From positions 15,004,001-15,068,000 of the forward strand of contig NC_090340.1 of the NCBI RefSeq assembly GCF_035084215.1: DNA of 64,000 nt, in the 5' to 3' direction. A model generated the notes under the pieces. That model worked only from the letters and a program-made list of their open reading frames with translations. It made no database searches and was not told where the DNA came from. Positions 1,690 through 53,904 of the stretch are shown here, piece after piece. The DNA is from Heptranchias perlo. Taxonomy: Eukaryota. The position numbers and the translations under genes were made by a program. Each line of letters begins with the position of its first letter. Within the stretch, counting starts at the first letter, position 1.

Positions 1690-4075
1690 TTAAGATAGTT
1701 CACGGAAAACTCCTGGAAAATATCAACAAAAACATAAAATTCATATTTTAATGTGAAATATAATTGAGAACCGATAGTAAAACCTGAAGTTATATCATCC
1801 GCTGCACAAATATTCTCAGCCAAACCTTATTTGCCTTCAAATTCCTGTATTTGATGTAAAAGCAAGAGGTTTATCTTTGTTATCTGATTATATTCCATAT
1901 TGTGCTTAATATTAATCACTTTATTTTTTGTTCCCATCATCAAATGGTTTTATTCGTTATTATTATCTAGCTTTCCTACAACACAACGATTACCAAGAGC
2001 TCCGTTCAAATTATCGGCTCTCGCCTTTCTCCCAATGCAGTTACCGATCCTGACCACCATTTTCGGCGATTCCCCGTGAAGAGTTCTGAAATTAAGTCTC
2101 TGGCCAACTTGTGTCCCTCACCCCTCCATGGCACAGCGGTTTGGAGTTGAAACTGTCTCTTGCATTTCAACTAAGCGGTGCCCACAACCTGGCTGCAGTT
2201 CAGCCGGTTACACCGTTTTTGTAACAAACTGATTGTCGAGTCAGACAATAGTGAATAAATCACCGCACGTCGATCTCCTATACTATTCAGTGACATTCAG
2301 TAATACAAAGGCGAACTTAATTATGACTTAACCATGAAGGCAGTGTTATCTGATTTCAAGGAGCGCCGATTGTTCCAGGCAGTAATATTCTCTGCACTTC
2401 AAAACCAGAAATCCTCACGGAATCGGATTAAAATAGTTTTGATTGCCCGTATTTGCAACAAAAGTTTCCACTTTGCAACATGATAAATGGAATGTCCGGC
2501 GACACAAAATCACTTTCCAAACCATTTGGTTGTGGGTGCACAACTAGTTTGAGTGAAGTGCTCTGAGTCTCCGGCCACTAATGGCTATAGATCATTGCTG
2601 ATCGCTACAGTCAAACACTCTCGGTACGATCTAAAATTGAAAATCATGTTCGGCACCATACCGACTGTAGAAATCTCTTTGAAACCACTGATATGGAAAC
2701 TCAGTGAATATTTTAATTATTCATTATGATAAAATTTCATTAATTCAAAGCTGAAAAAGAAGGCGTAACGGGACCGAACCGTTGTGAAAAGCCGGTACGT
2801 TCATTCATTCATTCCCGCAAAGGGTTCAATTATGCAGAAAGATTGATATCATGGAGATATTTAATCATAATCATGTCAGAACAATTTGCCTATTTCCTAA
2901 AAGTATTTGTTCCGCTTACCCGCTTAATGGGTCATACAAATCGTGTTCAGAAAAACATATTTGACGCCAGCGGGGAAGGATTTCACCCTCGGGGAGGAAA
3001 TAGTTTTTCGGAAAAGAAAAGCGAGCGCGGTGTAAAACGGGCGGCCGATTCGCTATCGCTCGTTTCGCGGTATCGCCGAAGGCCAATTTCACTCCCGCCC
3101 GGCGGCGCGTGGCTGTTGCAAATTATTAAATAGGAGGAAAGAAAACTGTCCGTTTAGTTAAAAATGCATCTAAGTAATAACTGTTTATAGATTCAATATT
3201 ATTTGTAATGGGGGAAAATAACTTAATGAATCAGTGTGCTGGAAGTAACGCTCATTTAAGCATTTCTTTATTATAAAATGAAGATTGACAGCTTTAAATA
3301 TTAGGTACAGTGATCACAGTAGTCACCGGTCTTAACATTCGCACGTATGTAGCTATATTAACTATGGTTTCTGCACTTTATTTCTAGCGTATGTTGCTCT
3401 GTTCAATGTTTAACCAGTAGTCTGTAAACTGGTGAAGGCAATGAACTAGCCACATAACAAAACATATACTTGGTTCACATCCAGGAAACAAAGGCTGAGA
3501 CAGTTGATACGCTGCAATAGGTTTGAGCAAAGCTCAGTAAACTCCAAGACGTAAATTTGCAGAGGAAAGGACTGTGTACCATCAGCCGGAGCTTGTAAGC
3601 GGAACAGGCGGTCACAGATCACCAGTGTAGCATCAACGTTGTGGTCATAACGGAAAATATAAGGTTGGTTGACCCTTGTGTATTGTAACTAACGCTGTTT
3701 GCGTGTTATTCTGATGATTGTTTTCGGCAGCAATCCACAAACGGGCAAAACGACCAATTAACAATATTTCCAAAGATGGGTTCACAGACCAAACAAGGGA
3801 CCGACACGACTCTGGAAGTGTCAAGCTCCAAACAAACGGAGAAACCCAAAATAAATACAGAATAACATATTCCAATATTATATCATTGATCGTGGGTGTA
3901 ATTATTTGTTATTGCTTAATCGTTTGAGGAATTTTCATTTATTTTCTTGTAATAAAAATGAACTTTCCTTGCATATTTTTGATCAATATGCACTATTTAA
4001 CAGATGCGAAATCTTTGCAACGATACGCTAATTGTTTTGCTGTACCTCGATATTATCATGCATAATTTCAATAAA
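1690..4075 (+). pseudogene. Receptor copy A, 3' part: post-C1 intron, TM exon deleted, cytoplasmic exon 1 (2751-2794), frameshifted ITIM exon (3485-3520)
   Basis: Colinear with 12980-15982. AG|ctgaaaaagaa...aagccg|GT reads AEKEGVTGPNRCEKP. CAG|gaaaca... reads ETKAETVDTLQ*, with YAAI and TVYHQ left in the shifted frame. AATAAA at 4070-4075. Upstream exons are not in the window. Confidence 0.75.
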
Positions 4076-5012
4076 AATATATGATCTACGATTTCTCTCT
4101 GTTCACCATTAATGATGATTCTTCTTCGCGAGTAAAACCGTGAAACCTGGGTTTTGACCGATGTGTTTCCTTACTGTATTCTGCCTTCCAGTCCAGGCGA
4201 TTCTCCTGATGTGGAAGGCAGGACGCTCCAGTCTATTGACTCGTCCATAAACCCACTGAACCCAGTTTGCAGTTGATGGAGCATGAGATGCCTTTCTCTG
4301 AACTCTGAATGAATATTCATTCCTATCCGAAACGATGCGCCCGGACAGTACCAGTTCACTTCTAAAGGTCCTAAGTAGTGAGAAAAGCCCGACGGAGCTG
4401 AATGCATTTTTATTGGAGAAAAGACTAAATTTATAGGGATTCAGGTCTTTCAAGTGTCGAAAGACTTGGATAATGTGGCAAAAAGCGGGTTTTATGGTTT
4501 TAATACGCAACTGGAGGCTCTGACTTACCAAGCCTCAAGAAAGAGAATAGAGTTAAAATCATTTGCCTCTTTTACTGTGGATGTCTGATCAACTGAGGGA
4601 TAACAACAGTTTGAAAGGTTAAACTATCAGATATTTCACAAGTAGATCACTTGAATTACAGGACGAGAACGAGCTGGTTACTGGAAGAACAGCAGCCCAA
4701 CAGTTCCAGTGACTAAGCCCTTTACTCAGAATTTAAAGATAATACAAGACGAAGTGAATCAGTTGCATTTTATTTACCTTAACTGTCCTGGTTTGATGAC
4801 TGTGTCCATCAACATGCATTTCAGAGTCCTAGAATGTTACAGCGCGGGAACAGTTCATTGGGCTTCTTAAGTCTGTACATTTTTTCTATCCATATGAAAC
4901 ATTTAACTTGTCCTACTTTTCTTTTGGATTCGCACTATCTTTGATATCCGTATTTCAAGCAGCTAATTCCATTCTAAAAGAAATCCTGGACTGTGTTTGT
5001 GGCAGAGAACTC

Positions 5013-8000
5013 CATATTGGCATAGGGTAAATAAGATCAGAGAGATGAATGCGTGGCTCAAGGGTTGGAGTGGGAGAAGTGGGTTTCGATTCATGGGGTA
5101 CTGGCACCAGTACTGGGGAAAGAGAGAGTCGTTCCGTTGGGATGCACCACACCTGAACCATGCTGGGACCAGAGTTCTAGCGAATCGAATGACTAGAGAG
5201 GTAGATCGGGCTTTAAATTAAATAAGGCGGGGTGGGGGTAGGGTCCAGGTGGAGATAAATCTACAATGCTAAAGAGAAAAGACAAAGAAGCAGTGCAGGA
5301 AAGTGATTGCGGTAAGGGTAACCAGATTGTGTCAGGAAGGGACAGAGTGTACAAACAAAAGAGTGCATTAACAAATAGGTCCGGCTAAGAAAAAATGGTA
5401 ATAAGACAAGTAGGGCCATAGTGCAAAACAATGTTAAGATGTCTAAAAACGATAAAACGACAAATGTAAAGGCACTGTATCTGAATGCACGAAGCATTCG
5501 TAATAGGGTAGACGAATTAACAGCGCAAATAGTTGTAAACGGATATGATATAATTGCAATTTCACAGATATGGCTGCATGGTGACCAAGGCTGGCAGCTG
5601 AATATCCAAGGGTATTCGATGTTTAGGAAGGACAGGCAAAAAGGAAAAGGAGGTGGGGTGGCGTTGTTAGTAAAGGATGAAATCAGAGCCATAGTGAGAA
5701 AGGATATTGGCTCAGAAAAGCAAGATGTAGAATCCGTCTGGCTGGAGTTAAGAAGCACCAAGGGGCAGAAAACACTGGTGGGAGTTGTCTATAGGCCTCC
5801 AAACAGTACTGGTAATGTAGAGGATGGCATCAAACAGGAAATTAGAGATGCATGTAACAAGGGTACTACAGTAATCATGGGTGACTTTAATCTACATATA
5901 GACTGGCCAAATCAAATTAGCAATAATACTGTGGAGGATGAATTCCTCGAGTATGGACGAGATGGTTTTTTAGACCAGTACCTTGAGGAGCCAACCAGGG
6001 AACAGGCTATCCTAGATTGGGTATTGTGCAATGAGAAGGGGTTAATTAATAATCTTGTTTTGCAGGGTCCTTTAGGGAAGAGTGACAATAACATGATAGA
6101 ATTCTTCATTAAGATGGAAAGTGAAGTAGTCCAATCCGAAACTAGGGTCCTATATCTAAATAAAGGAAACTACGAAGGTATGAGGAATGAGTTGGCCATG
6201 ATAGATTTGGAAGCTTCATTAAAAGGCATGACAGTGGATAGGCAATCGCTAACATTTATGGAACAAATGCATGAATTGCAATAATTATACATTCATTTCG
6301 GGTGCAAAAACACAAAAGGAAAATCGGCCCAAACATGGCTAACAAAATAAATTAAGGATAGTATTCGATCCAAAGAGGAGTCATATAAAGTTGCAAGAAA
6401 AGTATCAAGCCTGAGGATCAGGAGCAGTTTAGAATTCAGCAAAAACGGACCAAGAGATTGATTAAGACCGGAAAAATAGAGTATGAGGAAGCAAAATAAA
6501 AGTGGACTGTAAAAGCTTCTACAAGTACGTAAAAAGAAAAAGATTAGTGAAGACAAACGTAGGCCCCAAACAATCAAAAACGGGAGATTTTATAATGGGT
6601 TACAAGGAAATGGCAGAACAATTAAACAGAATCTTTGGTTCTGTCTTCATGGAAGAGTATACAAATAACTTCCCAGAAATATTAGGGAACTAAAGGTCTA
6701 GTGAGAAGGAGGAATTAAAGAAAATTAGTATTCGTAAAAAATAGTGCTGGAGAAATAAATGGGACTGAAAACCAATAAATCCCCAGGGCCTGATAATCTG
6801 CATCCCAGAGTACTAAAAGAGGTAGCCATGGAAATAGTGGATGCATTGGTTGTCATCTTCCAAAATTCTATAGATTATGGAACAGTTCCTGCAGATTGGT
6901 AGGTGGCAAATTAACACCACTATTTAAAAAGGAGGGAGAGAGAAAACAGGGAACTACAGACTGGTTAGTGTAACATCAGTAGTAGGGAAAATGCTAGATT
7001 CTATTTCCAAAGAATGTGATAACAGGACACTTGGAAAATATCAACGGGATTAGACAAAGTCAACATTGATTTATGAAAGGGAAATCATGTTTGACAAAAC
7101 TACTGGAGTTTTTTGAGTACGTAAGTGGTAGAATAGATAAGGGAGAACCAGTGGATGTGGTTTATTTGGATTTTCAGAAGGCCTTTGATAAAGTCCCACG
7201 TAACAGGTTAGTGTGCAAAATTAAAGCACATGGGATTGGTGGTAATATACTGGCATGGATTGAAAATTGGTTAACAGACAGGAAACAGAGAGTAGGAATA
7301 AATGGGTCTCTTTTGGGTTGGCAGAATTCAGTGCTTGGGCCCCAGCTATTCACAATATATATCAATGATTTGGAAGAGGGAACTAAATGTAATATTTCCA
7401 AGTTTGCTGATGACACAAAACTAGGTGGGATCGTGAGTTGTGAGTGTGATGCAAAGAGGGTTCAAGGCGTTTTAGACAAGTTGAGTGAGTGGGCAAATAT
7501 ATGGCAGATGCAGTATAATGTGGATAAATGTGAAGTTATCCACTTCGGAAGGAAAAACAGAAAGCAGCGTATTATTTAAATGTAGATAGATTGGGAAATG
7601 TGATGTACAAAGGGACCTGGGTGTCCTTGTACACCAGTCACTGAAAGCAAACATGCAGGTGCAGCAAGCAGTTAGGAAGGCAAATGGTATGTTGGCCTTC
7701 ATTGCAAGAGGATTTGATTAGAGTATCAAGGATGTCTTACTACAGTTATACAGGGCCTTGGTGAGACTAAACCTGGATTATTGTGTGTAGTTTTGGTCTC
7801 CTTACCTAAGAAAGGATATACTTGCCATAGAGGGAGTGCAGCGAAGGTTCACCAGACTGATTCTTGGGATCGCAGGACTGTCGTATGAGGAGAGATTGGG
7901 TTGACTCAGCCTGTATTCACTCGAGTGCAGAAGAATGAGAGGGGATCTCATTGAAAGATATGAAATTCTGACAGGTCTAGACAGACTGGATGCAGGGAGG

Positions 8001-8305
8001 ATGTTTCTCATGGCTGGGGGGTCCAGAACGAGGGGTCACAGTCTCAGTCTTTAGGACTGAGATGATGAGAGATTTCTTCACTCAGAGGGTGGTGAACCTA
8101 TGGAATTATTTACCACAGAAGGCTGTGGAGGCCAAGCCACTGAATATATTTAAGGAGATAGATACATTTCTGGACGCAAAAGGCATCAAGGGGTTTGGGG
8201 GGAGAGCAGGAATATGGTATTGAGATAGAGGATCAGCCATGATCATATTGAATGGCGGAGCTGTTTTGAAGGGCCGAATGGCCTACTCCTGCTCCTATAT
8301 TTCTA
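5013..8305 (+). mobile_element. CR1 LINE, 5'-truncated (ORF1 esterase C-terminus, ORF2 AP endonuclease + RT), decayed
   Basis: LYLNARSIRN..., VYRPP, MGDFN (endonuclease); YLDFQKAFDKVP, KFADDTKLGG (RT); CR1 3' UTR ggccgaatggcctactcctgctcc. The paralogous empty site lies at ~16990-17010. Confidence 0.95.
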
Positions 8306-10219
8306 CATTGCATTCTAACCAGCCTCTGTGTAGAGAGTATTTTACCTCTCCCTTTATTTTTTGAGATTATGTTCAATTTGTGGTCAGTCGTTACAGTCTC
8401 CTGACCACTGGAAACAATCTATCATTATTACCTTATCATCACGCCTCATGCTCTTGAAGACCTCTGTCAGGTCACTACTTAAATTTTTCAACTCAAGTGA
8501 AAGGTGTCCAAGCTTCTCAAATAATAACAACTCCACATTCCTAGTAATAAAGCCTGCCCCTTTTTCAATTGTTTTTATATCCTTCCTTAGCTTTAGAAAA
8601 GCTCTTACATCAGTTGAAGATTGTCTCCTTGAAATTGTATTCAATGCCACCAAATACAAAACCATGACATTCCCTTGCATCTTTATTGGACAATAAACTT
8701 CTGCTGCCATCAATCATTAAGGTAGCTTTGCTGCTCTCCATTTAAAATCCTATAATTTTAGTTGTATTTCCTATTCTTACTTCCAGAAATGTACTATTAC
8801 ACATTTCTCTGCATTCTCCATGGAACATCTATCTGCCCTTCCAATTAACTATCGACGTCGCCTGCAGGATTTCACAATCTGCATTAGGTGCTATCAGCAA
8901 ATTTTAATGTTGCTCCCTCAATTCCCCAGTCGAGATAATTAATCTTTATAATAAATATAAACAGCTCAACACAGACCCCGTGGAACATCTCTCGGCACAC
9001 CTTTCAACTCGGAGAAGCGTCCTTTTACCTTTGCACTTTGTTTTCTGTCCTCCAACCATCTCTGTATCCACGTGGCCACCTTGTCCTGACGTCCACGTGC
9101 GTTTGTGGTATGTGGTATCTTATCAAATACGTTTTGAAAATTCATACAATCTACATCTGCGACACTCTCTTTTTCTCTATTCTCTCTGTTATTTCTTCAA
9201 TTCATTCTTTGAATCAAGCGCAATCTGTTTTTTTTTCGAAACCTTACTGATTAGCTCAGGTTTCTGCAAGAACTTAACAGTTTTATGCGGACTGACGCAG
9301 GTCCTGCTAAATGCGAGTAGATGTGCAACTGTTTACCTGTCATTATGTTTCAGGTTGCTTCACATTCTATATTCTCATTTTGTAAAAATTCGTTGGCTTC
9401 GAGATGGAGATTAAGTCACCGTGGTGCAGATTATTTTGATAATTAGTTAACCGAAAGTGACACTTTCATGGGCAGTGATACAAAATTAACATTTGGGCGT
9501 TTTGTGTTCTGTGTCTTGCGTTCTGATGAAATGTAAGCTATCAACCGAAGTGTTCACCAGTCTGATTTTAGCTGCACCAGATGTTTTGCGATAAAGTGAC
9601 ACGAGCGAATCGTTTTCTCGAGCTAAATAAACAAACGGTTCAGTAGTTCAGCTCGAAGCACCAAATGCTCAAACTTTAAATTTAGCTCTGTTAATTCTAA
9701 CATCATCAAAACGCGCCGAGTGTCGAATAATGGTAGTTATTAAGCAACATGTTTCAATGTATTTGTGATAACATACGATATTCACATTTATCAGAGATAC
9801 GATTTCATATTTGCCTTTGTGACATCTGCTACCCTCATCAATAGTACAGTCTGAAATATATAGCCTCTTTAAGGCGCCATTCTTTCCGATTTCTTACATT
9901 ATATTAAGTGTAAGGTAAGCCGCAAAAGTATTTCCTAAATACATTTTCTGGCGCTGTATTTATTCATCGGTACACAAATACAGTGAAATTGGTTAAACCC
10001 ATGACACTCGGCATAATAACTTCGTGCATTGCAATACTGTAAGATTAATCACACGGGCTTCCAAATTGAAGTTCTAGATATTTTCGAAAATGTCAACAGA
10101 GTTCGGCTAAAATGAAGCGCATGTTATTTAGTTGCCCCATAATTGTAACTATTTATGTGACATGTTATGAAGAACGTTACTCATTCAAGTTGTTCCTATC
10201 ACAGTGTTTTACGCCTTAC

Positions 10220-11194: not shown

Positions 11195-14100
11195 ATGTTG
11201 TCGAGTGTGGTGCTTATGTTCCTGCTCCTGTCTCTCCGGGGAATTATTTACACAGGTATCTTTTATTCTCCATCCCAGCTGTCGCAATGAAGAAATGCAC
11301 CTGAAGGTGTTACCACTTAAACTGAATGACATTTAGTTCGTCTGCTCTATATTCTTCTTTCTCTAATTTATTTCCATGTACAAATATTTTCGAAAGTGCC
11401 TGGTTCCACATAGCATATAAGTAACCAAATTTTTAATCTATTTTCTAACAGCTGCTGCACGTATTTCTCAAACCCCCGAACAAGTGATTGCATTAAGGGG
11501 GGAAAACATCACCTTCTACTGTGTAATCCCGCTCTCTCAGGACAACTCAGAAGTGCATTGGTGGAAACAGGGCGAGAAAGCATATTTGCAAACAACGGTC
11601 GATAACAGAAAACGATTTGGTGTCAAAAATAAAGGAGCCAGTTTCTTTGAGCTACGGAACGTGACCTTCCAAGACTCTGGAATCTATCAATGCACAGTGA
11701 TCCGTCAGGGAAGCGTTAGTGGAAATGGAACGGGCTCAAATCTAATTGTGTGCGGTAAGTGACTGGGGTGAGTGGGAACTTCCAAATGTATCCAATGTAA
11801 CAGTATAAAACATTTATATTAATACATTTACAGTCAAACTCAATGTTACTCCAATATCTCTGTACACAGCTGTTAATTACACGGCACGATATGGCGCTTC
11901 ATTTACTGAGTTGTGTGAAATTCCATCAATATTAACCAGAGTAAGTAATATATTACTGGATTCATCTCAACATGTAGTTTCCACATCAGACTTCTGATGA
12001 GGGAAGGTGCGGAACAAATTCGAAACATATAGATGACTGACTGAAGATCTTTCATATTAATGCGCCTCCCCCGCCATATACAGGGCTCTTAACCTATTTT
12101 AGAAGCTTTGTTTGTCCCTGTCGCTGTCAGTGGGGTTTAACGGTCACTCCTGAAATTAATGCTCACATACTGACAGGCTGGTTCGAATGGCGGATTTCAG
12201 ATAAGCTACAATTAACTGTTAATTATTGGATTTACTCAACACATAGAACCATGAACCAGAACTTTGCCGCCGCTTTCCCCTGCAATAAACGAATCATTCC
12301 CCAGAGATTGTGTTGCTGAAGCCTTCTGAGGTTGAGCGGAATGTAATTTCCCTGAGCCGATCCCATGCTCCTGCTGTGTGGGCTTCCCGATATCCACTAG
12401 GGCCCTCCTTTCAGTATCAGTAATATACAGATTACTCGTTTCTTTCTTGGGGAGACAGACAGACAGAGCTAGAGATCCTAACAGAGAAGGACAGAGGATG
12501 CCATTCTTCTCCCACATCTTCTGTTACCTATCTCCCCAGAAACCTGATTTTCCACATTTTCTGTCCACAGCTGCCCCAACTCCACTGAAGATTGTCTCCA
12601 GGACACCCGAGAGCAAACCATCTGCTTCTCTGACTCTTGTGTGTGAAACGGCTGAGTTTTACCCGGAGGATTTCACCCTCACTTGGTATAAAAATGGCGT
12701 CAAAACCACAACTGGGATAAATATGACTAAACGGCGGAACACTGAGGGTCTGTATGAAGTTTCCAGCACTTTGGAAGTGACTCAGCCGAAGCGGAATGGG
12801 TCTGTTTACACCTGTTTGGTAACTCATGTCGCCCTCCAGACTCCCGCCATTGCAACCTACACTGTCAGCAATTCCGACTCAGGTAAGGAGCCAACAGTCG
12901 AAGAAGCGAGGTCAGCTACTGTTAAACACTGAAAGGATATTTGATAGGGTTTGTTCATATTAATAATCAGGAAGGTGATTCACGGATAATTCACGGAAAA
13001 GTCATGAGAAATTTCAACAAAACATAAAATGCATATTTTAATGTAAAACATCATTGACAACGGGTAGTAAAAGCTCAAGTTATATCATCCGCCACACAAA
13101 CGTATTCAGTCAAACCTTATTAGCCTTCAAATTCCTTTATTTGATGTAAAGCAAATATAAGCAGAAGTTGAGTTTTGTTATCCGATTATATTTCATATTC
13201 TGCTTATTATTTATCACATTTTATTTATTTTTGTTTCGATGTTAAAATGGTTTTATTCGTTATTATTATCTAGCTTTCCTGCAACAGGGTGATTCCCAGG
13301 AGCTACATTTAAGTTGTCTGCTCTCGGGTTTCTCCCAATGCAGTTCCCGATCCTGACCCCCCTTTTCAGCTACTCCCAGTGAAGAGTTCTGAAATTAATT
13401 ATCTGACCAAATGAATCCCTCACCCTTCCATGGCACAACGGGTTGGAATGGATCTGCCTCATACATTTCATTTAAACGGTGCTCACAACCTGGCTGCAGT
13501 TCTGCCGGTTACACCGTTTTATTAAAAGCTATTTGCCTGGTCAGGCGACAGTGAATAAACCATCGCGCGTTGATCTCCTACTTTGCGATATTCTTACCTC
13601 AATAAATACAGTGCAGTGTAGATATGTGAATTGGGAGTTTTAACCGATTTCTGCAATTCGGCATTTTGTCCGGCAACGGTGAAACGATTGTCATCGAATT
13701 GCCCGCGATTTCATCCAACAATAAATAAAGAACATGAGAAAAGTCAAGGGTAAGAACAAACCATTCGGTCTAGGGAAACATCCCTCTCGTATTCTACCTC
13801 TTCTAAAACAGTGTTTCAATAGTCATAAATTCAGTACCCCTCCTCGAAGATAATTCCAAAAAGGTCTCATCCATTTCAGACATTTGAGAAATTCCTTCCA
13901 ACATTATATCTAAAAAAAGTAACATTTTTAATTTATTGCCGTTCTACACTGTGCAGTTGCTGAAAGCATCATTACTTTAACCAAAAAACGCTCTTGCGGC
14001 ACCTTTTTAGGAAACGCCCGCCATAATGTACAACTCAATATATATGCTCCTATTATTCTTGCAGTTCGTGATGGCATGTCTCCTTACTACTCGGGTTTTA

Positions 14101-14711
14101 GATATGCGATGTGCGGTGTGGCGTTACTAGTGCTTCTGGTCATCATCCGGTCGCACTGCCAATTGCAGGTTAATAAAGGTAAGTTCTACTGTAAGCGTTT
14201 GATTTTCATTCAAAACTTCAGGAAGCGGTGGGGAGAAGTAGTGAGAGTCTCCGAATAACACAAAGAAGGCAGTGTTATCTGATTTCAGGCAGCGTCCATT
14301 GTTCCAACAGTAACAGATTCTGCACTTTATAACGCAGAAATCCTCACAGAATCAGCTTAAAAATTGATCCGATTACCTCTAAATTTGCAACAACAATTTC
14401 CACTTTGCAGTGTGATAAATGAATTGTACCCTGACACATAATCACTTTCCAAACCAGTGGGTTGTGGGTCCCCAACAATGGAGCGGTGTGAGGCTCCGGC
14501 CGGCAATGGCCGTAGGTCATTGCTGATCGCTACCGGGACTCCGATTCAAATACTGTCGGTACAATCTGAAATTGAAAGTCATGTTCCGCTTCATACTGAC
14601 TCTGGAAAGGTCTATAAAATCACTAATGTGGAAACTCAGCAAATATTTCAATCGCTCCTTATAATTAAATTTCATTAATTCACAGGTAAAAACTGCACCG
14701 AACGGTCGTGA
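11195..14711 (+). CDS. Receptor copy B: intact VJ-C1-TM Ig-superfamily receptor (NKp30/SIRP/TCR-like architecture), 271 aa; exons 11195-11255, 11452-11754, 12571-12882, 14065-14178, 14686-14711
   Basis: All four introns are GT-AG and phase 1, and the 816-nt spliced ORF is open. It encodes signal peptide MLSSVVLMFLLLSLRGIIYT, V and C1 domains with canonical residues, a TM segment and tail RSHCQLQVNKGKNCTERS*. An in-frame upstream ATG at 11153 is an alternative start. Confidence 0.85.
11452..11754 (+). CDS. Copy B exon 2: V-set Ig domain with germline-joined J-like G strand
   Basis: ITFYC...VHWWKQ...LRNVTFQDSGIYQC...GNGTGSNLIV; acceptor ttttctaacAG, donor GTaagt. Confidence 0.92.
12571..12882 (+). 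CDS. Copy B exon 3: C1-set Ig domain
   Basis: LTLVCETAEFYPEDFTLTWYKNG...GLYEVSSTLEV...YTCLVTHVAL carries the C1-set FYP, W and YxCxVxH motifs; acceptor ctgtccacAG, donor GTaagg. Confidence 0.92.
14065..14178 (+). CDS. Copy B exon 4: transmembrane exon with arginine
   Basis: ttcttgcAG|...YYSGFRYAMCGVALLVLLVIIRSHC...K|GTaagt. It is 114 nt, the same length as the paralogous exon at 39388-39501. Confidence 0.85.
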
Positions 14712-15397
14712 AAGGCTGGTACGTTCATCCATTCATCCCCGAAAAGTGTTCAAATATGCAGAAAGATTACTATCATGGAGATATTTTTATCATAATCATG
14801 TCAGAACAGTTTGCGTAATTCCTAAAAGTATTTGGTTTGTTTCGCTTAATGGGTCACTCAAATCGTGTTCAGAAAAACATTTGATGCTGGCGGGGAGGGG
14901 TTTAACCCCTCGGGGCGAAATTGTTTTTCGGAAAAGAAAAGCGAGTGCAGTGTACAACGGGCGGCCGCTTCGCTATCGCCCGTTTCGCGCTACCGCCGAA
15001 GGCCAATTTCACCCTGTCTCCGGTGTGTTGCTCTTTTAAATTATTAATTGGCAGAAAAGAAAACTGTCAGTTTCGTTGAAAATGTGTCTAAGTAATTACA
15101 GTTTATAGAGTCAATATTATTTATAATTGTGGAAATTCTTAATATTGTGGAACAACCGCTCATTTAATCATTTATGTGGTGTATAATGAATATTGACGGG
15201 TTTAAATAATAAGTTATAGCGAGCACAGTACTCACCGGTCTTAACATTTGCACTTATGTGACAATATTAATTATGGTTTCTGCAGTTTATCTCTCGTCTA
15301 CATTGTTCTGTTCACTGTTTAACTAGTAGTCTGTAAATTGGTGAAAGCAGTGAACTAGCCACATAACAAATCATATACTTGTCCCTGGCCTATTTGG

Positions 15398-15500
15398 GAA
15401 GCAGAGGCTGGGATCCTTGATACGCTGCATTAGGGTTGAACAGAACTCATTAAACTCCAACACGTAAACTTGAATTGAAGAGGAATGTGTAAAATTAGGC
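15398..15500 (+). pseudogene. Dead ITIM/ITSM exon of copy B
   Basis: Homologous to 56883-57029. The acceptor reads TGG instead of CAG, a 1-nt deletion precedes tac gct gca tta (YAAL, 15421-15432), there is an internal TAA, and the second Tyr codon has become TAA. Confidence 0.8.
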
Positions 15501-15976
15501 GGGACTCGAAAGCGGATCAGACAGAGACAGATTACCAGCGTAACAACAATATTCATCGGATATCGGAAAATATAAGGCTGGCTGACTCTGGTCGTGTATC
15601 GAATCGAAAGCTGTTTCTCTGTTATTCTGTTGATTGTTTTCGGCAGCAGTCCACAAACTGGCAAAACGACCAATTAACAATATTTCCAAACACGGATTAC
15701 AGACCAAAAAAAGGGACCCACGTGACTCTAGGCTCCAAAAAAATGGGAAAATCTCAAAATAACAAATAAAACACAGATTAACATATTCCAGTATTATATC
15801 ATTCAAAAAGGTGTCATTGTTTGTTATTGCTTAAATGTTTGAGGAATTTTAATTGATTTACTTGTACTAAAAATGAACTTTCCTTCCAACTTTTGATCAA
15901 TCTGTCATGTTTTACAGATAAGAAAACTTTGCAATTATATACTTTTTTGTACCTAGTTATTATCATGCATAACTTC

Positions 15977-15982
15977 AATAAA
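15977..15982 (+). terminator. Candidate polyadenylation signal of copy B
   Basis: AATAAA conserved at the homologous position in copy A (4070-4075) and copy C (57694-57699). Confidence 0.5.
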
Positions 15983-18357
15983 AATAGATGTTCTACGATT
16001 TCTCTCTTATCAACCATTAGTGATCATTTTTCTTCACTAGTAAAACTGCAAAACCTGAGTTTTGATCTATGCGTTGCCTTGGTGTATTGTGACTTCCAGT
16101 ACAGGCGATTCTCCTGATGTGGAAGGCAGGACGCTCCAGTCTATGGACTCGTCCGTAAACCCACTGCACCCAGCTTGCAGCTGATGGAACATGAGTTACC
16201 TTTCTCTAATCTCTGAATGACTATCCACTTCGCCCAGACAATTCCAAGCGGCTCCCAAAGGAAATGCCCAGATTATTCTCATTATGCTCTATCTTCAAAA
16301 GGACAGAGATTCGAGAGAGTTCTGAGACAAGCAACAAGAATGAATCCGGGACCTGGCAGTTAAGTTGTGAGAAAAGCCCCACGGAGCCGGTCGCATTTTT
16401 ATTGGAGGTAATACCAAATTAAAAAGGATTCTGGCCTTTTAGAAATGTTGAAAGACGTGGCTGATGTAGATAAGCTCGCTGTATGACTTAACACGCAACA
16501 ACAGGTTCTGAATTATCAATTCCCAAAGAAGAGAATAGAATTACAACCATTTTTTGTGTGGTTGTTTGTTCAGCTGGAAGATAACTAATAGTTTGAATGG
16601 TTAAACTGTCATCTATTTGGAAGTAGATCACTTGAATTACAGGGTGAGAACTATCTGGTTACTGGAAGAATAGCAGCCCAACAGTTCCAGCGACTAAGCC
16701 TTCAACTCAGAATTTAAAGATAATACAAGACGTAGTGAATCGGTTGCATTTTATTTGGCCTAACTCTCTTTGTTTGATGACTCTGTGCATTAACAAGCGT
16801 TTTAGAGACCTAGAATGTTACAGCAGAGAAACAGTTCATTGGGCTTCTAAAGTCTGAACGTTTTTTCTCTCCACATGAACCAGTTAATTTGTCCTATTTT
16901 GCTTTTAAATTCTCACAATCTTTCATATCCCTCTTTTCAAGCAACTAATTCCATTCTAAAAGAAATCCTGCACTGGGCTTGTGGCAGAGAACTATATATC
17001 GCATTCTAACCAGCCTCCGTTTAGAGAGTATGTTACCTCTCCCTTTATTTTTTGAGATTATGTTAAATTTCTGGTCAGTCGCTACAGTTTACTGACCACT
17101 GGAAACAATATAACATTATTACCTTATCATAACGCGTCTTAGTGTTGAAAACCTCTTAAACATCTCAGCTCAAGTGAAAGATGTCCAAGCTTCTCAAATA
17201 ATAACAACCCCACATTCCTGGTAATTAAATTTTCAATTGTTTTTATACCTTTAGTTTTAGAAAAACTCTTCCACCAGCTGAACATTACCTCCTTGCTTTT
17301 GTATTTTATGCCACCAAATACTAAACCAGGACATTCCCTTTGCATTTTTATTTTGCAATAAACTTCTGCTGCCATCATTCGTTAAATTCGCTCTGCTGCT
17401 CTCCATTTAAGATCCTATAATTTAAGATGTATTTCCCATTCCTACCTCCAGAAATGTAATATTTCACGTTTCTCTCCATTCGCCATGGCCATCTACCTGC
17501 TCTTCGAACTAACTATCGATGTCGCCTGCAGGATTTCACAAGCTGCATCGGAATGTCCTTCCCTCCTCCCCATTGTTTGTCATCTGCAAATTTTAATGTT
17601 GCTCCCTCAATTCCCCAGTCAAGATAATTAATCTTTATAATAAATAAAAGCAGCCCAACACAGACCCCGGGGAACACCTCTCGGCACATCTTTCCACTCC
17701 GAGAAATATTCTTTTACCCTTATACTTTGTTTTCTGTCCTCCAATCATCACTCTATTCCCATTAGCCACTTTGTCCTTACTTTCACGTGCCATTGTCGTA
17801 TGTGGTACCTTTTCAAATACGTTCGGAAAATCCATGCAAATTACATCTGCGGCATTCTCCTTCTCTTATTCTCTTTGTTATTTGTTCAATTAATTCTTTA
17901 AATCAAGCGGGATCTGCTTTTTCTAAACTCGTGATTCCTGGACCTGATTAGTTCAGGTTTCTACCAGAATTTCGCCGTTTTATAACGTTTGTCATAGGTC
18001 CTGCAAATTGCAAGTAAATGTGCAACTGTTTACCTGTCATTATGTTGCAGGTTGCTTCGCATTGTTTTTTTCTCATCCAATAACAATTCGTTGGCTTCGA
18101 GGAAGAGATTAAGTCAACGTGCTGTAGATTATTTTGAAAACTAGTTAAGCGAAAGTGACACATTTATGTGCAGTGGTACAAAATTAACATTTGGACATTC
18201 TATCAATCATTTGTTCTGTGAAAATGTAAGATATTAACGGAAGTGTTGACTAGTCTGGATTTAGCTACACGAAATGTTTTGCTAAATATCGACACTAGCG
18301 AATCGTTTTCTCGAGCTAACATGAAGCGCGTGTTATTTAATCGCCCCATCAGTGTAA

Positions 18358-23032: not shown

Positions 23033-25612
23033 TGTTAGCGTGGATTTTGGACTGTTGAATTAAAGGCAACGATGAAGTGACTATTGGGTACATGGCGGTG
23101 GTCTTTACCCTAAAACCACACTGAAATGTGCTTTGTGTAGATTAGACTAACCTTAATTAAAGGCTTAAATATAACGCTTGACTACTAATAAAATGGACAC
23201 TATTAAACAAAATGGATTCTATTAAACAAAGGGACACTATTAAATAAAATGGATTCTGTGACTGTGGGAAAGACAGTTAAAAGTGTTGAGTTTGTACATT
23301 CCAGAACTGGCTTACAGTCTGGGAATACAAAGGACATTTCACAACGAACTGATAAAACTATAGAACCAGACTGCATGAAACAAAGGCATGCTGTCTTAAG
23401 GTGATAATAGTTGTTCGGACTTAATTGGTTAATGCGTAAGCAGTCCGTTGTTGCTATGCGGACTTAATTGGTTAATGTGTGTAATCAAGATTTATGATGT
23501 AAAAGCTACTGAAAATCTGTATTTCAAAGGTATAAAAAAGCATGACAACCATTTTAAAGTTGAGAAGGTAGCTGCGTTCACTACGGAGTGTCCAGTCCTT
23601 CTCCCAAAGCTTTGTCCAATAAACTGCATGTTGAATCTTTAAGTCTGACTCCGAGTGGTGATTTTTTCCCACAACAATTGGCGTAGTCGGCAGGATCTCA
23701 CTACTGGTGAGCTGATCGGTTGGCCTCGATCAGCGAACTGGAGTCGAGATCATTGAACTGTGGGAGTCAGACTAAGCCAACAGTGCAGTTAACACAGGGG
23801 GGTAAGTTAAGAGAATTTATGGGACTGTTGGGTATAACTAAGAGCTGGTTGCTTGTGCTGATCGACTAAGGACAAGGAAGTGTCTCTCTTGTATCCTGCC
23901 TTAGACTGGCTGTTCAGAGGGGAGATCCCCCACGCGAAGGTCAGGATCTTGAAGTGGATGCAAAAACAGGGGCACTTGCGATTGTGAAGCACGAGTAACC
24001 AGAACCATCCGGTACCAAACTCTGTAGTGGCGAACAAACGCAGAGATTAGAGCATAAGTTAAAGCATAAGTTAATTTACGATGTGTATTGTCTGATCATA
24101 CAACCTAGAACCGAACCCCATGGGAGGAAACACATTATCAAACTGATAATTGTGGCCGTGAGTATATAGTTGCAACTGAAAGTAAAATCTGGAGTGGAGT
24201 TCGGGCTGGGATTTCAGAAAGTTTAGAAAGTTTGGGAGGGAAAAGTAAATCTGGTGTGACCGGCAGTGACCGGTGATTACGGCTGGCTGTACACCAGCAC
24301 ATACCGACAGTGATCGGTGATTAAGTACCGGCAAGTCCCGGGGCCAGGACCCGAAAGTTGAAAGAAAAGAAAATCCGGCGAGAAGCCGGGACCCGAAGGA
24401 AAGATATAGCGAGAGGCTGAGATATCAGAAAAGAAAATCCGGTGGTTAGACCGGGACACGAAAGGTTTGAGTGAAAAGAAAACCCGGTGGATAGACCTTG
24501 ACCCGAAGGATATAGCGAGAACAGAGCACGATAATAAAGTTAACAAGTGAACAACCTAGATGGGGACCTGCAGGTTCCCTTATCGAGAAGTATATGACAG
24601 ACAGACACTCATTGATTAAGCAGATGCAAAAGGATGGCTGGGATATTTCTCAGACCTTAGAACAACAGAGAAAGTGGATAGATGGGGAAAAGAAGGATAA
24701 AACAAAAAAGGCAGGAGTATTACTAGTCCACCAACAAGCTGGAACCTTAGGGAATTAGAAGGCACCTCCACTAGAAAGTGGAGCGAAGATAAGGATAAAA
24801 TTAGGGAATTAGAAACTAGGATAAGGGAATTAGAAAAAAGAATCAATTAAAATGTTTAAAAGACAGAGACCCGGAAAAGAAAGGGTGTACTGTCTCTTTA
24901 AAAAGCCTGTCCTGATTGTGAGTGTTTTTTCGGTGTTGTGGGCCACGCCCCTTCTTACTGCGTCTTACGTGTTTATGTATTTGTTTTGTCTTGTGTTTAA
25001 TTCTGAGATTGCTGAATTAAAATTGGAGTTATTGAGGTTAAGTGACCGATTAAATTCTGATTCTTATAAAATGTGAGCATGTCAAATGACTGGCTGTTCA
25101 GAGGGGAGATCCCCCACGCGAAGGTCAGGATCTTGAAGTGGATGCAAAAACAGGGGCACTTGTTATTGTGAAGCACGAGTAACCAGAACCATCCGGTACC
25201 AAACTCATGCTTTTTTATACCTTTGAAATACAGATTTTCAGTAGCTTTTACATCATAAATCTTGATTACACACATTAACCAATTAAGTCCGCATAGCAAC
25301 AACGGAAATGTCCTTTGTATTCCCAGACTGTAAGCCAGTTCTGGAATGTACAAACTCAACACTTTTAACTGTCTTTCCCACAGTCACAGAATCCATTTTA
25401 TTTAATAGTGTCCCTTTGTTTAATAGAATCCATTTTGTTTAATAGTGTCCATTTTATTAGTAGTCAAGCGTTATATTTAAGCCTTTAATTAAGGTTAGTC
25501 TAATCTACACAAAGCACATTTCAGTGTGGTTTTAGGGTAAAGACCACCGCCATGTACCCAATAGTCACTTCATCGTTGCCTTTAATTCAACAGTCCAAAA
25601 TCCACGCTAACA
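23033..25612 (+). mobile_element. ERV-derived element with a complete left LTR (23033-23676) and an inverted U3 right end (25206-25612)
   Basis: TG...CA ends; GACCT TSD at 23028-23032 and 25613-25617; TATA at 23531, AATAAA at 23618; PBS; gag-like coiled-coil fragment at ~24555-24850 (KIRELETRIRELEKR). Confidence 0.92.
23679..23696 (+). promoter_or_regulatory. Primer binding site, tRNA-Ser
   Basis: TGGCGTAGTCGGCAGGAT, 2 nt after the LTR end, is the complement of the vertebrate tRNA-Ser 3' end (ATCCTGCCGACTACGCCA). Confidence 0.9.
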
Positions 25613-39387: not shown

Positions 39388-40998
39388 CTTCAATGGAAGT
39401 TACTTTTAAATGGTCCACAATAATATCCGTCAGTCCAAGAATTACCAGAAAACCCATGACAAGCCGACCAATCATGAGGAGCCAAATGATGAAATTGTGA
39501 TCTGAGGTGTCGTTTTAAAACCAAAATATAAAACCGTTGCATATAGAATTATCGAATGGAAGCAACAATAATTTGTTGATACAAAGTAATGGGGTCCATT
39601 AAATGGCTGGTTTAAACTGCACTCCATGGGGGTCGATTTTAACTTGCCGACATCGGGGTTGACAGCGAAATTAGTGGCTCAAAATGGGCTCGGTAAACTA
39701 CCACACCGACCACGGCGTCTTCCACTTTCACAGAGAGCCTATTGCTGGGGGCTAGTGCCTGTTTGTTTCAGGTAGCAGGACCTTCTTCATATCTGAAACG
39801 GATGTGCAAAGGACTCCGATTGCCGTTTTAAGATCGAACTGGTGTGCCCTGCACTCTCTGGCCAGTTTTACTAGAGATAGATATAAAGAGGACTTGAATA
39901 GTTAAGTTTTAAATTATTTTTAAATGCCAGGACGAGTGTCAATATGAGTCTCACAAAAAATAACCTGTGCCGCTGCAACCCGGGCTTCCCAATCCGGGAT
40001 CGCCAGAGCCCGATTTACGTTGCTGGGCACCCGACGGTCTCCGGGCCTCCCTGCGCCCGGCATCGGAACGCCGGATCTGCGTTAACATTCCTGATTTTCA
40101 CTTAAGTTGCCTGGGGTCGACTCCCCACATGGGAGTCTGGTTCTAACTGGCACAGGAGTCCTGCAAATTGTCTCCTTCCGAACTGTAATTTCGACGATTC
40201 CTTAATTTTACTCCAAAATCTGCAGTGAGGGAAACTGTTATATATTCGTCTAAAGAGTCCAAAGCCGTAGTGGTAGCCAGAATAGATATGCTCACCAATC
40301 CACAAGAACCTGAGGAGGGCCGTGTCTCAGTGGATGATGGCCATCCAGGTAATAGTTTACTTACATTTTTGGAGAATGCTTGCAAAAGTTTTTTTTCCCG
40401 TGAGGCTTTGAAGAAAATTCAGGCTCATGAAATTCAGGGGGAGTTGGAAAGTGATAAATGGACAAGGCTCTGTCTGGGGAGCAGTAGAGTTCTACCCGTT
40501 CCATTCTATGCTATCTGGTCTATTGATCAATAAATACAGAGGAATCACTTCTAGTAATAGCCCTAGATTTTCTGATGTCTTCAATGTATGGATAGGTAAG
40601 AAGTAATTTAATAATACCCAAAGCAATCTGGGTCATTTGAGGAAATGCCCCTGAAAGATGCTGGGTGCAGTTCTACACATAACCTGTCCCAATTTTACCT
40701 TGATCAGCGGTGTAGATGATACTGGCGTGCACCAGCAGAGAGACATGAGATACGAGACAAGTATAAACAACCCCTCTCCAGGCAGGCTGCGCTTCTTCCA
40801 TAAAAAAACTGGAAACCTCGTATAGCCCCTCCACTCTCCTGTTTTTCACAGTTTCTCTTCCAGTCAGAATTTCGACGCCACCTCTTCGCCAGGAGATTCC
40901 TAAGTGTTCCGGGCAAAAGGCAGCCTTTTTATGCTCGAGTTTCAGAGAAGTCGGTGAAATCCTTTCAATAGGATCGATTTTCAGGGGGCTTGGGGAAA
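39388..40998 (-). pseudogene. Receptor copy E (inverted): degenerate C1 exon ~40684-40998 and open TM exon 39388-39501
   Basis: C1 relic PSPLKI...AFCPEHLGISW...EGLYEVSS...YTCLVSHVSL lacks the first Cys and has no AG acceptor. TM exon ctcAG|DHNFIIWLLMIGRLVMGFLVILGLTDIIVDHLKVTSIE|GTaaga. No leader or V exon found. Confidence 0.82.
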
Positions 40999-42899
40999 TT
41001 TTGTCAGAAAACATTGTTAGTATTAGTCTCCGTGTATTTATTACTGAAAAATTTGGTAATATCGCAATCTTACCTTAAACTAGAAATGCTTGGGTGCAAA
41101 TTTATCATTTCTGAACATCAAAGTTTGTACATGATCACTACAGTCGAATAGCCTAGTTTCGCGAGACGCATTCACGGGAACGAAACGAAGGGAAAGTGAA
41201 TTTTCTATCGCCGGCGGTTATCAGATTTTAGGTGGTGTACAAATTTGATGATGTCTCTGGGCAATTTCGTAAATACTGGTGTTGTACATAAATATAGTGC
41301 GGTGCCTGAATAAGGCTGGGTTGGAATCTCAATGCAGCACAATTACCAGAAACCGCTTTCTCTGCCTGGGTGAAATCCTCCGACACTGACCCAGTTGGAT
41401 AAACACTGCACGTAGGATTTGGGGAATTCATGAAAATTAGTTTTCCTACCACGCAATATTCTTCCCCGAAATGAAATCCACAAGCTTACATTTTTTTAAA
41501 ACCTGGAGAGAAATTAAAGCATTTCGATATTTTTAAACAAATATGAGTCGACATTCAGCCCAGCAATTACAATAACGCCACAAAATATGGCATAAGTATT
41601 ACGATTGACTACCCTTGATCCAACATAATTGCTCACTCTTGATCTTTGAACCCAGCACAAAAGCTGTGTCTTGGACAACTAAACGGAACGAAATCTATCT
41701 CTTCACTTTCTATTCCAATACCCTCCCTAACCCTTGCGGAATCTGTGGCAATGTTCTATCTTCCCTATATTACAACACGCAGAACCTATTCGCCCAGTGA
41801 AAATATGTAGGTGACTACTTTGACCGCAAGTCAAGACAATTTGGGACACAATTTTGGGTTGGCAGTTCGAAGCGGGTGATATCGAATTGGCATCTCGTTT
41901 TTCATTCCGCTCGATGGACCTCAGTGGAGAAGGAAACCGGGCGGCTTGTAAAACGGACTGGCGATTAATTATTAGTTCCCGCACAAGACGGATTTATATC
42001 CCAATGCCACTTTGCTGTGAACAATGTCAACAGAATTATTCTGGGGAAACACCGTGAAGATTTCACCTCGAGCATTAATCCCAACAAACATATCAATACT
42101 TAGACCCCCGCTCCGGCTATGGCATCAAGCATCGGCCCCCAAAATGTAGAGACCTTTGGAAAACGCCTCAAAATATTAATAAGGGGCGCCATGTTCTGGG
42201 TCCGGGCGTAAATAACTGCCGACTGATGCTTAGTCCAACATAACCATTCAATGCTAGAGCTCATTGAATCTGTGAAGTAACTTCAGCTAAATCAACCTTA
42301 CATCCACAATGCTGGATATTAGAGGCCAATGTTTTGGCCAGTTAACGTCTGTTAATTGAAGTCCAAGATCTATGTTCCAGAAATTTGGGATTCTGTAAAT
42401 TAGACAGTTTCCCTACTTTATAGAAACAATCTGAATTTTGTCTCCATCGTTCGGTGGAGTTGGAATTATATTTATCAACTCTCTAAGTGTTTACTCTGAA
42501 AGGAAAGCTTATGCCACATTTCCAGTTGGTGAATCTGAGCCCATAGGAAGGACATCTTCACTGTGCTCTCTATTTTTTTCTGAAGCATGGCTAATTAAAT
42601 GCCCTCATATCACTTCCTTGAGCGCTTTATGCATGGATGCCCCAAAAACCAAGGAACCATCTTCTACCGTGTGTGTTTATTGATTACTGTCTCCAGCATT
42701 AATATGAAAGTCAAGTCGAACATGAATTCGTGGTTTTTTCTTCACTGTTGAAATGTCTTGTTCTGTGAGGGTGATTGGAGTGTGATGGGAGGCCACTTTT
42801 CCGTCAATACTTGTACCGTGCCATGACCTATTTCCTGTGACAATGAAGCAGGACTAGTAGCTGACCTGAACGTAGTAGTCTCATCCAGTCGGTGACCTG

Positions 42900-45071: not shown

Positions 45072-45748
45072 ATGTTGACGAGTTTTGTTTTTTCTCCTAG
45101 AGATCATTTACACAGGTACCTACAATTCGATAACCCAGCTGCCTCGATAAACAAAAACACGTGAAATGGTTTCCTCTGAAATACAATGAAATTTAAATGT
45201 CTGCCAATTTTGCTTCTTTCTTTTTTTCATCTCTACGTCGTGTCTATTACAATTAACCAAACTTTGAATGTATTTCCTGATAAACGCTTCTAGTATTTCG
45301 ATCAGTGAATTAACTTCTTGAACAACCAATTACTTTCAGAGTGACACACATCACCTTCGATTGCATATTCTACTCAATATAAATCCAGTGCGATTTAGTT
45401 CATCTTTGCGATTCTTCTTTATCTCTTTCATTTGCAGGTAGAACTGTGCTCTCAAGTGTCTGGTTCTGCGTCCAATGCAATTAGCCAAACTTTGCATGTA
45501 TTTTCTAACATCTGCGGCGCAGATTTTTCGATCTGAGTGGCTCGAATTCCCGAACAGGTGATGGCATTCAGAGGGACACACATTATCTTCGACTGTGTAA
45601 TCTCCTTCTTTCAGGTCAACTCTTGGACAGAAGTGCTTTGGTGGAAACAGGTTGAGAATGATTACCTGCAAAGTGAAACGAATAGCAGAAAATGATTTGG
45701 TTTGAAAATTAAAGGAAGCGGTTTCCTTCAGTTGCTGAACGCGACTTT
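45072..45748 (+). pseudogene. Receptor copy D: frameshifted leader 45072-45115 and truncated V exon ~45512-45748
   Basis: The 44-nt leader ends tttacacag|GT and the acceptor AG has become AT. V reads PEQVMAFRGTHIIFDCVIS...EVLWWKQVENDYLQSETNSRK*FGLKIKGSGFLQLLNAT (TGA at 45693-45695) and is then cut by a CR1. Confidence 0.85.
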
Positions 45749-45749
45749 A

Positions 45750-46172
45750 AGATAAGAACCATAAGAAATAAGAGCAAGAGTGGGATATGCGGCCCCTCGA
45801 GCCTCCTCTTCCATTCAATAAGATCAGGGCTGATCTTCTACCTCAACTCCACTTTCCCACCCGGTACCCATATCCCTCGATTCCATTAGTGTCCAAAAAT
45901 CAATCGATCTCAGTCTTGAATATACTCAAGGACTGAGCATCCACAGCTCTCTGGGGTACCAAATATTCACAACTCTCTGATTGAAGACATTTTCCCTCAT
46001 CTCGGTCCGAAATGGCCGACCCTTTATCTTGAGGCTATGACTACAAGTTCTAGACTCTCCAGCCAGGGGAAACAGCGTCTCAGTATCTACCCTGTCAAGC
46101 CCTTTAAGAATGTTATAAGTTTCAATGAGATCACCTCTCATTCTTCGAAACTCCAGAGATTATAGGCCCATT
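45750..46172 (-). mobile_element. CR1 3' fragment truncating the copy D V exon
   Basis: MRGDLIETYNILKGLDRVD...FNQRVVNIW plus CR1 3' UTR. Confidence 0.9.
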
Positions 46173-52900: not shown

Positions 52901-53832
52901 ACCTTCTACTGCACATTCTCCATCTCTCAAGCCCAGTCCCAAGACTCTGGAGTCTATCACTGCGCAGTGATCCGAGAGGGAACAGTTGGAGCAAATGGAA
53001 CCGGATCATATCTAATTGTGCATGGTAAGTGTGAAACACCGGAGAGCGGGACTGTCGCAAACCTATCAAACATAACAAACGGGAATGTTTTGTGATTGCT
53101 TTATTGTACGGTTTGTGGCAGTATAAACATTTCTGCGAACACATTTCGCGAGAAATTTAAGTTGCAGGTTCGCGTTCTCTATATACAACTGCCAATTAGA
53201 GAGTAAAATATTACCCTTCACATGCAGAGTACAGCAAAATGTATCAATATTAAGCAGTTGGAAAAAAACTCCAAATAAATTTATACACCAGATATCTGAT
53301 AGCGGAGGTTCAGAACAAATTCCAAGCTTATAACTGAGTGAAAATTGTTTCTATTAACACGCTTGCCCCACCATATACACGGCTCTTAGCCCATTTTGGA
53401 TGCTCTGACTGCCCCCAGCGCGGTCTCTGGGGGGTTTAACATTCAATAAATTTTTTCTCACATCATGTTTGGCTCGTTAGCGTCACGGATTTGAAAGCCA
53501 GCGTGCAACTAACTATTGATTAACGGATTCACTCAACAAACTGGAGCTTGGAATTCACAACGTTGTCACCTCACTAACCCCCAATAAATACAATACGCCG
53601 GAACTGTATTGCTGCAACCTCCTGAGGTTCAACCGTATAGTTTATTTCACCAATTGTTATGCTTCAGCTGTGAGATCAGTCCAATACCGAGTAATGCCCT
53701 CCTTTTTTCATCGGCAATGTGGAGATTACTCGAATACTCGTCACTGTCTAACTGAGTAAAGAAAATGGAGGGAATGGGCGCGCCAACTTTCTCCCAGGGT
53801 TCATTTGTTTAATTCTTTGGACTCTGAAAATC

Positions 53833-53904
53833 GCAAACAGATATATTGTAGAATTTGCAAACAGATATATTGTAGAACTTGCAAACAGATATATTGTAGA
53901 ATTT
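53833..53904 (+). repeat. 3 x 24-bp tandem repeat
   Basis: gcaaacagatatattgtagaa(t/c)tt at 53833, 53857 and 53881. Confidence 0.95.

Follow-up and report, generated by a model that had tools for sequence, protein, structure and literature searches.

Can a receptor gene pass from inhibitory to activating by losing its cytoplasmic tail, and can the product of such a change still be at work? This question is raised by a 64,000-nucleotide (nt) stretch of the Heptranchias perlo genome (NC_090340.1, positions 15,004,001 to 15,068,000 of the forward strand; hereafter, the window), in which we see five copies, A to E, of an immunoglobulin (Ig)-type receptor gene. Copy B joins an intact extracellular part to a transmembrane (TM) segment with an arginine, and to a short tail. 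We conclude that the best reading of copy B is that of an activating paired receptor, a reading that we hold to be probable. Its gene has five exons:

11195-11255, + strand: copy B leader exon (L); GT-AG, phase 1; homologue starts agree with 11195
11452-11754, + strand: copy B V-set (VJ-type) exon; intact; Pfam V-set 2.8e-09; GT-AG, phase 1
12571-12882, + strand: copy B C1-set exon; intact; Pfam C1-set 4.6e-16; GT-AG, phase 1
14065-14178, + strand: copy B TM exon, 114 nt; GT-AG, phase 1; Arg codon AGA at 14100-14102
14686-14718, + strand: copy B cyt1 exon, 33 nt; GT-AG; stop TGA at 14709-14711

Joining these exons yields a V–C1–TM gene, with a single C1 exon between V and TM, whose frame is open over 271 residues up to the stop; an in-frame ATG also lies upstream of the leader, at 11153. 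An earlier interpretation of this DNA, made from its letters alone (the sequence-only reading), described the leader, V, C1 and TM exons as clean, and so we find them. Family-conserved columns are retained at 15 of 16 positions in V and 13 of 13 in C1, and the structure model of V has a pLDDT of 92.5. The TM segment places five uncharged residues before the Arg and 15 after it. The product is likely to be a type I receptor: leader, V, C1, TM and a Tyr-free tail of about 18 residues. Its unpaired cysteines, one at the end of V (11751-11753, residue 121; also present in P0001, P0002 and P0017), one in the TM (residue 242) and one just inside the membrane (residue 257), are possible dimerization or palmitoylation sites.

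To what family does this protein belong? Protein searches returned 39 named homologues, all from sharks, rays and chimaera, under automatic names such as SIRP-like, tapasin-like and B7-like; another 133 proteins, unnamed, came from a profile search, and 48 of these were used (E < ~1e-50, <=500 residues). The V domain of copy B is up to 72% identical to those of family members. Full-length inhibitory members spread four Tyr motifs across two exons, and four tail tyrosines in a matching layout occur in P0007, P0008, P0010, P0017, P0020 and P0022. The family shows several features by which paired receptors are recognized: relatives with tails bearing ITIMs (immunoreceptor tyrosine-based inhibitory motifs; 29 of 67 with at least two motifs), a short ITIM-free tail in B, and a basic TM residue that the inhibitory members lack. 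With good probability, copy B would then be the activating member of a paired-receptor family of chondrichthyans, in which the tails of inhibitory members bear four Tyr motifs.

The relation between the TM arginine and the tail bears on this reading. The 87 homologues were reduced to 67 that could be scored, 20 being left out (18 without a TM segment and two without the C1 anchor motif). At least two tail Tyr motifs are present in 0/17 proteins with Arg at B's TM column vs 29/50 without it (Fisher 9e-6); counted the other way, Arg occupies this column in none of the 29 multi-Tyr members and in 17 of the 38 others. The named proteins alone give the same picture (0/7 Arg vs 17/24 non-Arg, p=0.0013), and none of the 12 neighbouring TM columns is associated with tail motifs. 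In a comparison of phylogenetically independent pairs (n=11), eight go with the association, none against it and three are tied (median p 0.008); the underlying ectodomain tree has 65 rows, 63 with both traits, four that were too short having been left out. On this tree the Arg state changes 12 times. Furthermore, a single clade of eight Arg TMs is rejected by the approximately unbiased test (p-AU 8e-5; 25-row TM tree with the Arg column removed), which rules out one origin of all Arg TMs. Glycine is the commonest alternative at the column (33/67), and the Arg codons AGA (copy B) and CGG (copy D) are each one base away from Gly codons. We also note two unnamed homologues, P0052 and P0080, that combine the Arg with one degenerate Tyr motif: these are possible intermediates of an Arg-first route.

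Is copy B alive? It might be the recently silenced pseudogene of a once-activating receptor, with the deletion in its tail as an early sign of decay: of the five copies seen in the window, four have breaks or missing parts, activating KIR and Ly49 genes are often lost (as the accessible part of PMC2213150 relates), and no protein returned by our searches is identical to copy B. We give this idea little credence, in that 790 nt from leader to TM, the start codon and every splice site are intact, as are 28 of the 29 family-conserved columns of V and C1. The distance between copies A and B is 0.14-0.22 (Kimura two-parameter, K2P), with 10.3 non-triplet insertions or deletions per kb over 4168 non-coding bases; B has kept its frame through about 9% neutral divergence since the A/B split. 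Under neutral evolution since then, its 814 nt should have collected ~4.2 frameshifts (P 0.015), and stops and splice loss would both have been avoided with a probability of 0.0105 at K=0.10; the joint chance of an intact neutral B is ~2e-4, or ~1e-3 when the five copies seen are allowed for. The ratio of nonsynonymous to synonymous change (dN/dS) against broken paralogues, over 17-94 codons, is 0.48-0.74 for leader, V and C1 and 1.5-2.0 for the dead exon cyt2. It is because of the Arg/short-tail association, together with an intact frame despite that divergence, that we consider copy B likely to be a working, adaptor-coupled activating receptor.

How, then, was the inhibitory tail lost? The relevant features lie downstream of copy B, and in copies A and C:

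15398-15498, + strand: copy B dead cyt2, with Tyr motifs 1 and 2; YAAL codons at 15421
15703-15800, + strand: copy B dead cyt3, with Tyr motifs 3 and 4; AG acceptor retained; probable 3' untranslated region
15977-15982, + strand: probable poly(A) signal AATAAA, present at the corresponding places in A (4070) and C (57694)
1694-9626, + strand: copy A, a duplicate of the 3' half of B at ~80% identity, without TM exon
2751-2794 (cyt1), 3485-3585 (dead cyt2), from 3788 (dead cyt3), + strand: copy A tail exons
52605-57364, + strand: copy C, a defective gene of ITIM-tailed type whose nearest relative is Heptranchias P0003
56294-56337 (cyt1), 56883-56984 (cyt2), from 57193 (cyt3), + strand: copy C tail exons

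The tails of P0003, P0007 and P0008 have their counterparts in the dead tail exons of A, B and C; copy B therefore descends from an ITIM-tailed gene, as had been proposed. Cyt1 measures 33 nt in B against 44 nt in A and C; one 11-nt gap in B is placed by a MAFFT alignment and by six of six pairwise alignments at three gap settings. The frame then reads GKNCTERS before the TGA, 7 nt upstream of the donor, and here both coordinates and alignments agree with the sequence-only reading. Perfect inverted duplications at 23.0-25.6 kb do hint at possible assembly oddities close by, but read errors do not typically remove 11 nt from non-repetitive sequence; that the deletion is an artefact of assembly seems extremely improbable, and our verdict would be unaffected by it, the downstream exons being dead independently.

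In cyt2 of copy B, the acceptor reads GG where A and C have AG, the donor is GC instead of GT, and the exon is one base out of frame, this shift and an in-frame TAA (15451) being common to A. That the exon keeps YAAL codons while having lost its acceptor and frame was already described; its donor is gone as well. A second dead tail exon, cyt3, had been overlooked: it bears a deletion across motif 3 and a Tyr-to-TAA change (15779), again both common to A. As both cyt2 splice sites are gone, the cyt3 acceptor is kept, AATAAA stands at 15977 and a single weak donor-like site follows, the last junction of copy B would probably lie 7 nt past the stop, within the 50-55-nt rule of nonsense-mediated decay (splice sites were judged by dinucleotides and pyrimidine content). 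The mRNA, with cyt1 either spliced to dead cyt3 or followed by no further splicing, would thus escape decay. An ITIM-bearing isoform made by alternative splicing can be set aside: when the TM donor was joined to 89 downstream AGs, four chance strings resembling Tyr motifs were obtained and none from the ancestral ITIM codons. One further exon-like block, conserved among the three copies, follows an AG in A (4192), B (16100-16185) and C (57820); it lies 3' of the presumed poly(A) signal and has no match to homologue tails.

The sequence-only reading took the 11-nt deletion to be the step that converted an ITIM-tailed receptor. The deletion is real, specific to B, and cuts the tail upstream of all Tyr motifs. 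However, copy A, whose cyt1 has its full 44 nt, has four tail lesions in common with B that set the two apart from C and from homologues with intact tails: one base is missing ahead of Tyr 1 (offset 23 in A and B vs 24 in C), cyt2 contains the TAA (A 3538, B 15451), ~17-18 nt are deleted across motif 3, and the Tyr of motif 4 has become TAA (A 3863, B 15779). Joined at conserved sites, the exons of A give Tyr-free tails of 26 or 40 residues. These lesions might have reached A by gene conversion from B that spared cyt1, but this is disfavoured by the even A/B divergence across blocks (K2P 0.14-0.22). Since the four lesions are common to A and B, the inhibitory tail was lost before the A/B duplication: we read all four Tyr motifs as gone in the A/B ancestor, and the 11-nt deletion as a later, B-only trim of a silent tail. 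Conversion by the deletion itself, which must also contend with an Arg TM shared with a short-tailed catshark protein, is very unlikely, and we have rejected it as the conversion step. Dead cyt2 is 71-72% identical to C, no higher than introns (72-81%). In the last tail exon of A (3788-3865) and B (15703-15781) both tyrosines are gone. In A the reading frame does not close before the second of them, which would fit an A/B ancestor whose Tyr-free tail was still being translated.

That catshark protein, P0015, ends just after its TM segment, and in the TM tree it is sister to copy B (support 97/90); 10 of 13 N-terminal TM residues are identical between the two, and the next best of the 67 compared has five. 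In V trees, by contrast, the V of B groups with those of P0001, P0002, P0014 and P0017 (83/66), and the V of P0015 falls in another clade (89/91). TM kinship combined with differing V grouping points to the TM/tail of copy B being an old activating Arg cassette that has been reshuffled among different ectodomains. We envisage that a Gly-to-Arg change and the loss of the four Tyr motifs, in either order, produced this cassette before the window lineage and the catshark lineage split; that it was then joined to different V domains; and that the A/B duplication came later, with the 11-nt deletion last, shortening an already silent tail.

As to mechanism, the V domain of copy B would bind a ligand, and the Arg at the top of the TM would pair with the Asp pair of a zeta/gamma-type dimer bearing ITAMs (immunoreceptor tyrosine-based activation motifs). 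According to the accessible part of PMC13107469, the Asp pair of FcRγ or zeta dimers is bound by an Arg close to the TM top, whereas a central Lys serves the receptors that work with DxxxT/S adaptors (DAP12 type), except in NKG2D-DAP10, where it is an Arg; Xenopus XFLs pair their Arg TM with FcRγ (PMC2413239, in part). The sequence-only reading noted that an Arg near the outer TM end couples NKp46, NKp30, GPVI and LILRA to FcRγ or CD3ζ, and for B it had considered DAP12 besides these two. The position of B's Arg favours zeta/gamma over DAP12. The shark genomes open to a 2014 survey were reportedly drafts. As far as its accessible part goes, that survey found no FcRγ in shark sequences (PMC4016189); expression of CD3Z is documented for the cloudy catshark and the nurse shark (PMC10768021, likewise in part). 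CD3ζ would be the likelier partner of copy B, and DAP12-type coupling looks unlikely. We think it probable that the V domain of copy B meets a ligand and that the signal passes to a zeta-type ITAM dimer, most plausibly CD3ζ.

Several observations weigh against a working activating receptor. One loose Tyr motif is retained by 6 of the 17 Arg homologues, and at a one-motif threshold the association has p=0.026; 21 of the 50 non-Arg proteins are likewise without two motifs; and many of the short tails are automatic gene models, perhaps truncated. The grouping of B with P0015 has support of 88/90 when the Arg column is removed, on 36 columns. The dN/dS ratios come from 17-94 codons and broken partners, and a loss of function within the last fifth of B's branch would have a P of ~0.16. 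FcRγ is reported absent from sharks in the 2014 survey. Furthermore, only 15 uncharged residues follow the Arg of B vs 16-19 in most homologues, and its TM is without the NxxR motif of the LILRA/NKp46/GPVI type, which may place the Arg at the membrane surface. These last two features would also suit a protein that is expressed without signalling, as a decoy, in adhesion or as a ligand (like SIRPγ, or a V-C1 protein of the B7-H6/tapasin kind), and in which the Arg is only an interface anchor: the Atlas look-alikes of copy B include NCR3LG1 and tapasin-related clusters, and SIRPγ is a short-tailed, non-signalling precedent in the accessible parts of PMC3533184 and PMC7206415. But a neutral anchor is not expected to be confined to one column, absent in all 29 multi-Tyr members and repeatedly gained, and we judge this explanation unlikely. 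An activating receptor is still the likely role of copy B, on the grounds of sequence; the sequence-only reading was right to this extent in calling B a functional activating isoform, though 'isoform' does not apply, copy B being a separate gene.

None of the other copies supplies an intact inhibitory partner. For A and C in particular we reject this role. Copy A is without ~680 nt that include the entire TM exon (2280-2336 vs B 13580-14265), and could encode a secreted form if its 5' exons sit upstream of the window. In copy C, V has a 120-nt deletion, there is neither C1 nor TM, a Cys replaces the first ITIM Tyr and the third motif holds a stop; its V is sister to that of Heptranchias P0003 (95/93). 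The shared tail lesions of A, its absent TM exon and the defects of C had all gone unremarked. Between B and C, the 3' part of V (11670-11753 vs 52940-53023) has a dS of 0.22 and the 5' part 0.72, over 27 codons apiece, which hints at gene conversion in patches. Two more copies are present:

39388-40999, - strand: copy D, with a decayed C1 that is without its first Cys, and a TM exon of 114 nt (39501-39388)
45528-45752, + strand: copy E, a V fragment with an in-frame stop, truncated by a repeat

Copy D carries its Arg (CGG) at 39466, in a TM lineage distinct from that of B and closest to Heptranchias P0006; its C1 keeps 10 of 13 family-conserved columns, and neither V nor leader was found in the region upstream. 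The V of copy E keeps 6 of 8 such columns. Elsewhere in the window no flanking gene from outside the family was identified. Inverted duplications free of mismatches (308 nt and 102 nt, 100%) lie at 23033-25612, along with a direct repeat of 119 nt (98%); a very recent rearrangement could explain them, as could the end of a transposon or an artefact of assembly. Tandem repeats at 114-374 and 59595-60013 (units of ~65 nt and 117 nt) lie in a repeat element at 376-709 and 59292-59618.

Paired activating and inhibitory receptors are known in mammals, Xenopus and bony fish, and the principle at work in copy B is known from mammals; the shark scaffold is apparently undescribed. Our literature search, which had subscription journals and bioRxiv supplements outside its reach, found no account of a chondrichthyan SIRP-like family or of its Arg/tail split, and the accessible parts of two UrIg/MHC papers (PMC12227049, PMC10751288) do not mention SIRP or ITIM; a SIRP-like V-C1 paired-receptor family of chondrichthyans thus apparently has yet to be described. 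More tentatively, cartilaginous fish may possess a large SIRP-like V-C1 paired-receptor system of their own, in which one TM Gly became Arg several times independently, the tail tyrosines being lost on each occasion, and coupling is to CD3ζ where FcRγ is reported missing. If so, chondrichthyan Arg receptors would be candidate activating receptors of shark natural killer or myeloid cells. Should copy B work as we suppose, the inhibitory-to-activating switch is at work in the oldest lineage of jawed vertebrates, using another scaffold and recurring at one residue, and concrete receptor-adaptor pairs exist for sharks.

How does copy B compare with known systems? SIRPβ couples to DAP12 through a mid-membrane Lys. 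SIRPs have a V-C1-C1 ectodomain, SIRPα being inhibitory with four tail tyrosines, SIRPβ activating via DAP12 and SIRPγ non-signalling (PMC7206415, in part). The shark family resembles them in its V and C1 Ig domains, its four-tyrosine inhibitory tails and short-tailed partners, and in the SIRP-like character of the top Atlas feature matches (score 0.97) and of most NCBI automatic names; it differs in having one C1 rather than two, and an Arg at the outer TM end where SIRPβ goes with DAP12. No Lys occurs in the 13 residues after the Arg column in any of 68 rows, four of which have Arg there. A solved-structure sequence match to SIRPα (3.4e-14) is tied with UrIg2 and antibodies. Fold searches with the V of B returned generic Ig domains (best Z 14.6, rmsd 1.8-2.0, 93-97 residues aligned), with SIRP absent among the 50 matches listed. 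With one C1, no mid-TM Lys and matches of so general a kind, copy B is not filed here as a SIRP. Shark non-rearranging VJ-C1 genes (UrIg, NKp30/NCR3, PRARP) also share an unsplit VJ-type V exon and a C1; among solved structures, P0008 finds its best sequence match in UrIg2 (3.6e-15), although the match is in C1 and tied with antibodies and SIRPα.

Receptors of the leukocyte receptor complex (LRC) type and their like (CD89, NKp46, NKp30, GPVI, LILRA/PIR-A and Xenopus XFL TM1) have an Arg near the N-terminal end of the TM, a short tail and uncharged, ITIM-tailed partners in the same cluster; in LRC/XFL TM1-type receptors, as in B by its place in the sequence, this Arg is in the top half of the TM. 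LRC-type ectodomains are C2-type, whereas that of copy B is V-C1; B also keeps a separate tail exon and dead tail exons, a Ser sits three residues before its Arg where NxxR would be, and its Arg arose from Gly within the shark family, several times. With NxxR missing, copy B does not qualify by sequence as an LRC-type TM1 receptor. The activating KIR and Ly49 genes provide the closest parallel in history: an inhibitory ancestor, a basic TM residue gained and ITIMs lost, and a cassette spread by recombination (Abi-Rached and Parham 2005, PMC2213150, in part), with domain-wise tree conflict as in merohomogenization (PMC3210942, in part). Copy B nevertheless differs from KIR, which use Lys and DAP12 and whose activating forms are at most ~18-31 My old (PMC2213150). 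The locus also yields an order of steps that could not be had for KIR (same source): tyrosine loss first, tail trimming later. As it appears to be common to the Heptranchias-side shark and the catshark, the cassette of copy B would be far older than the activating forms of KIR.

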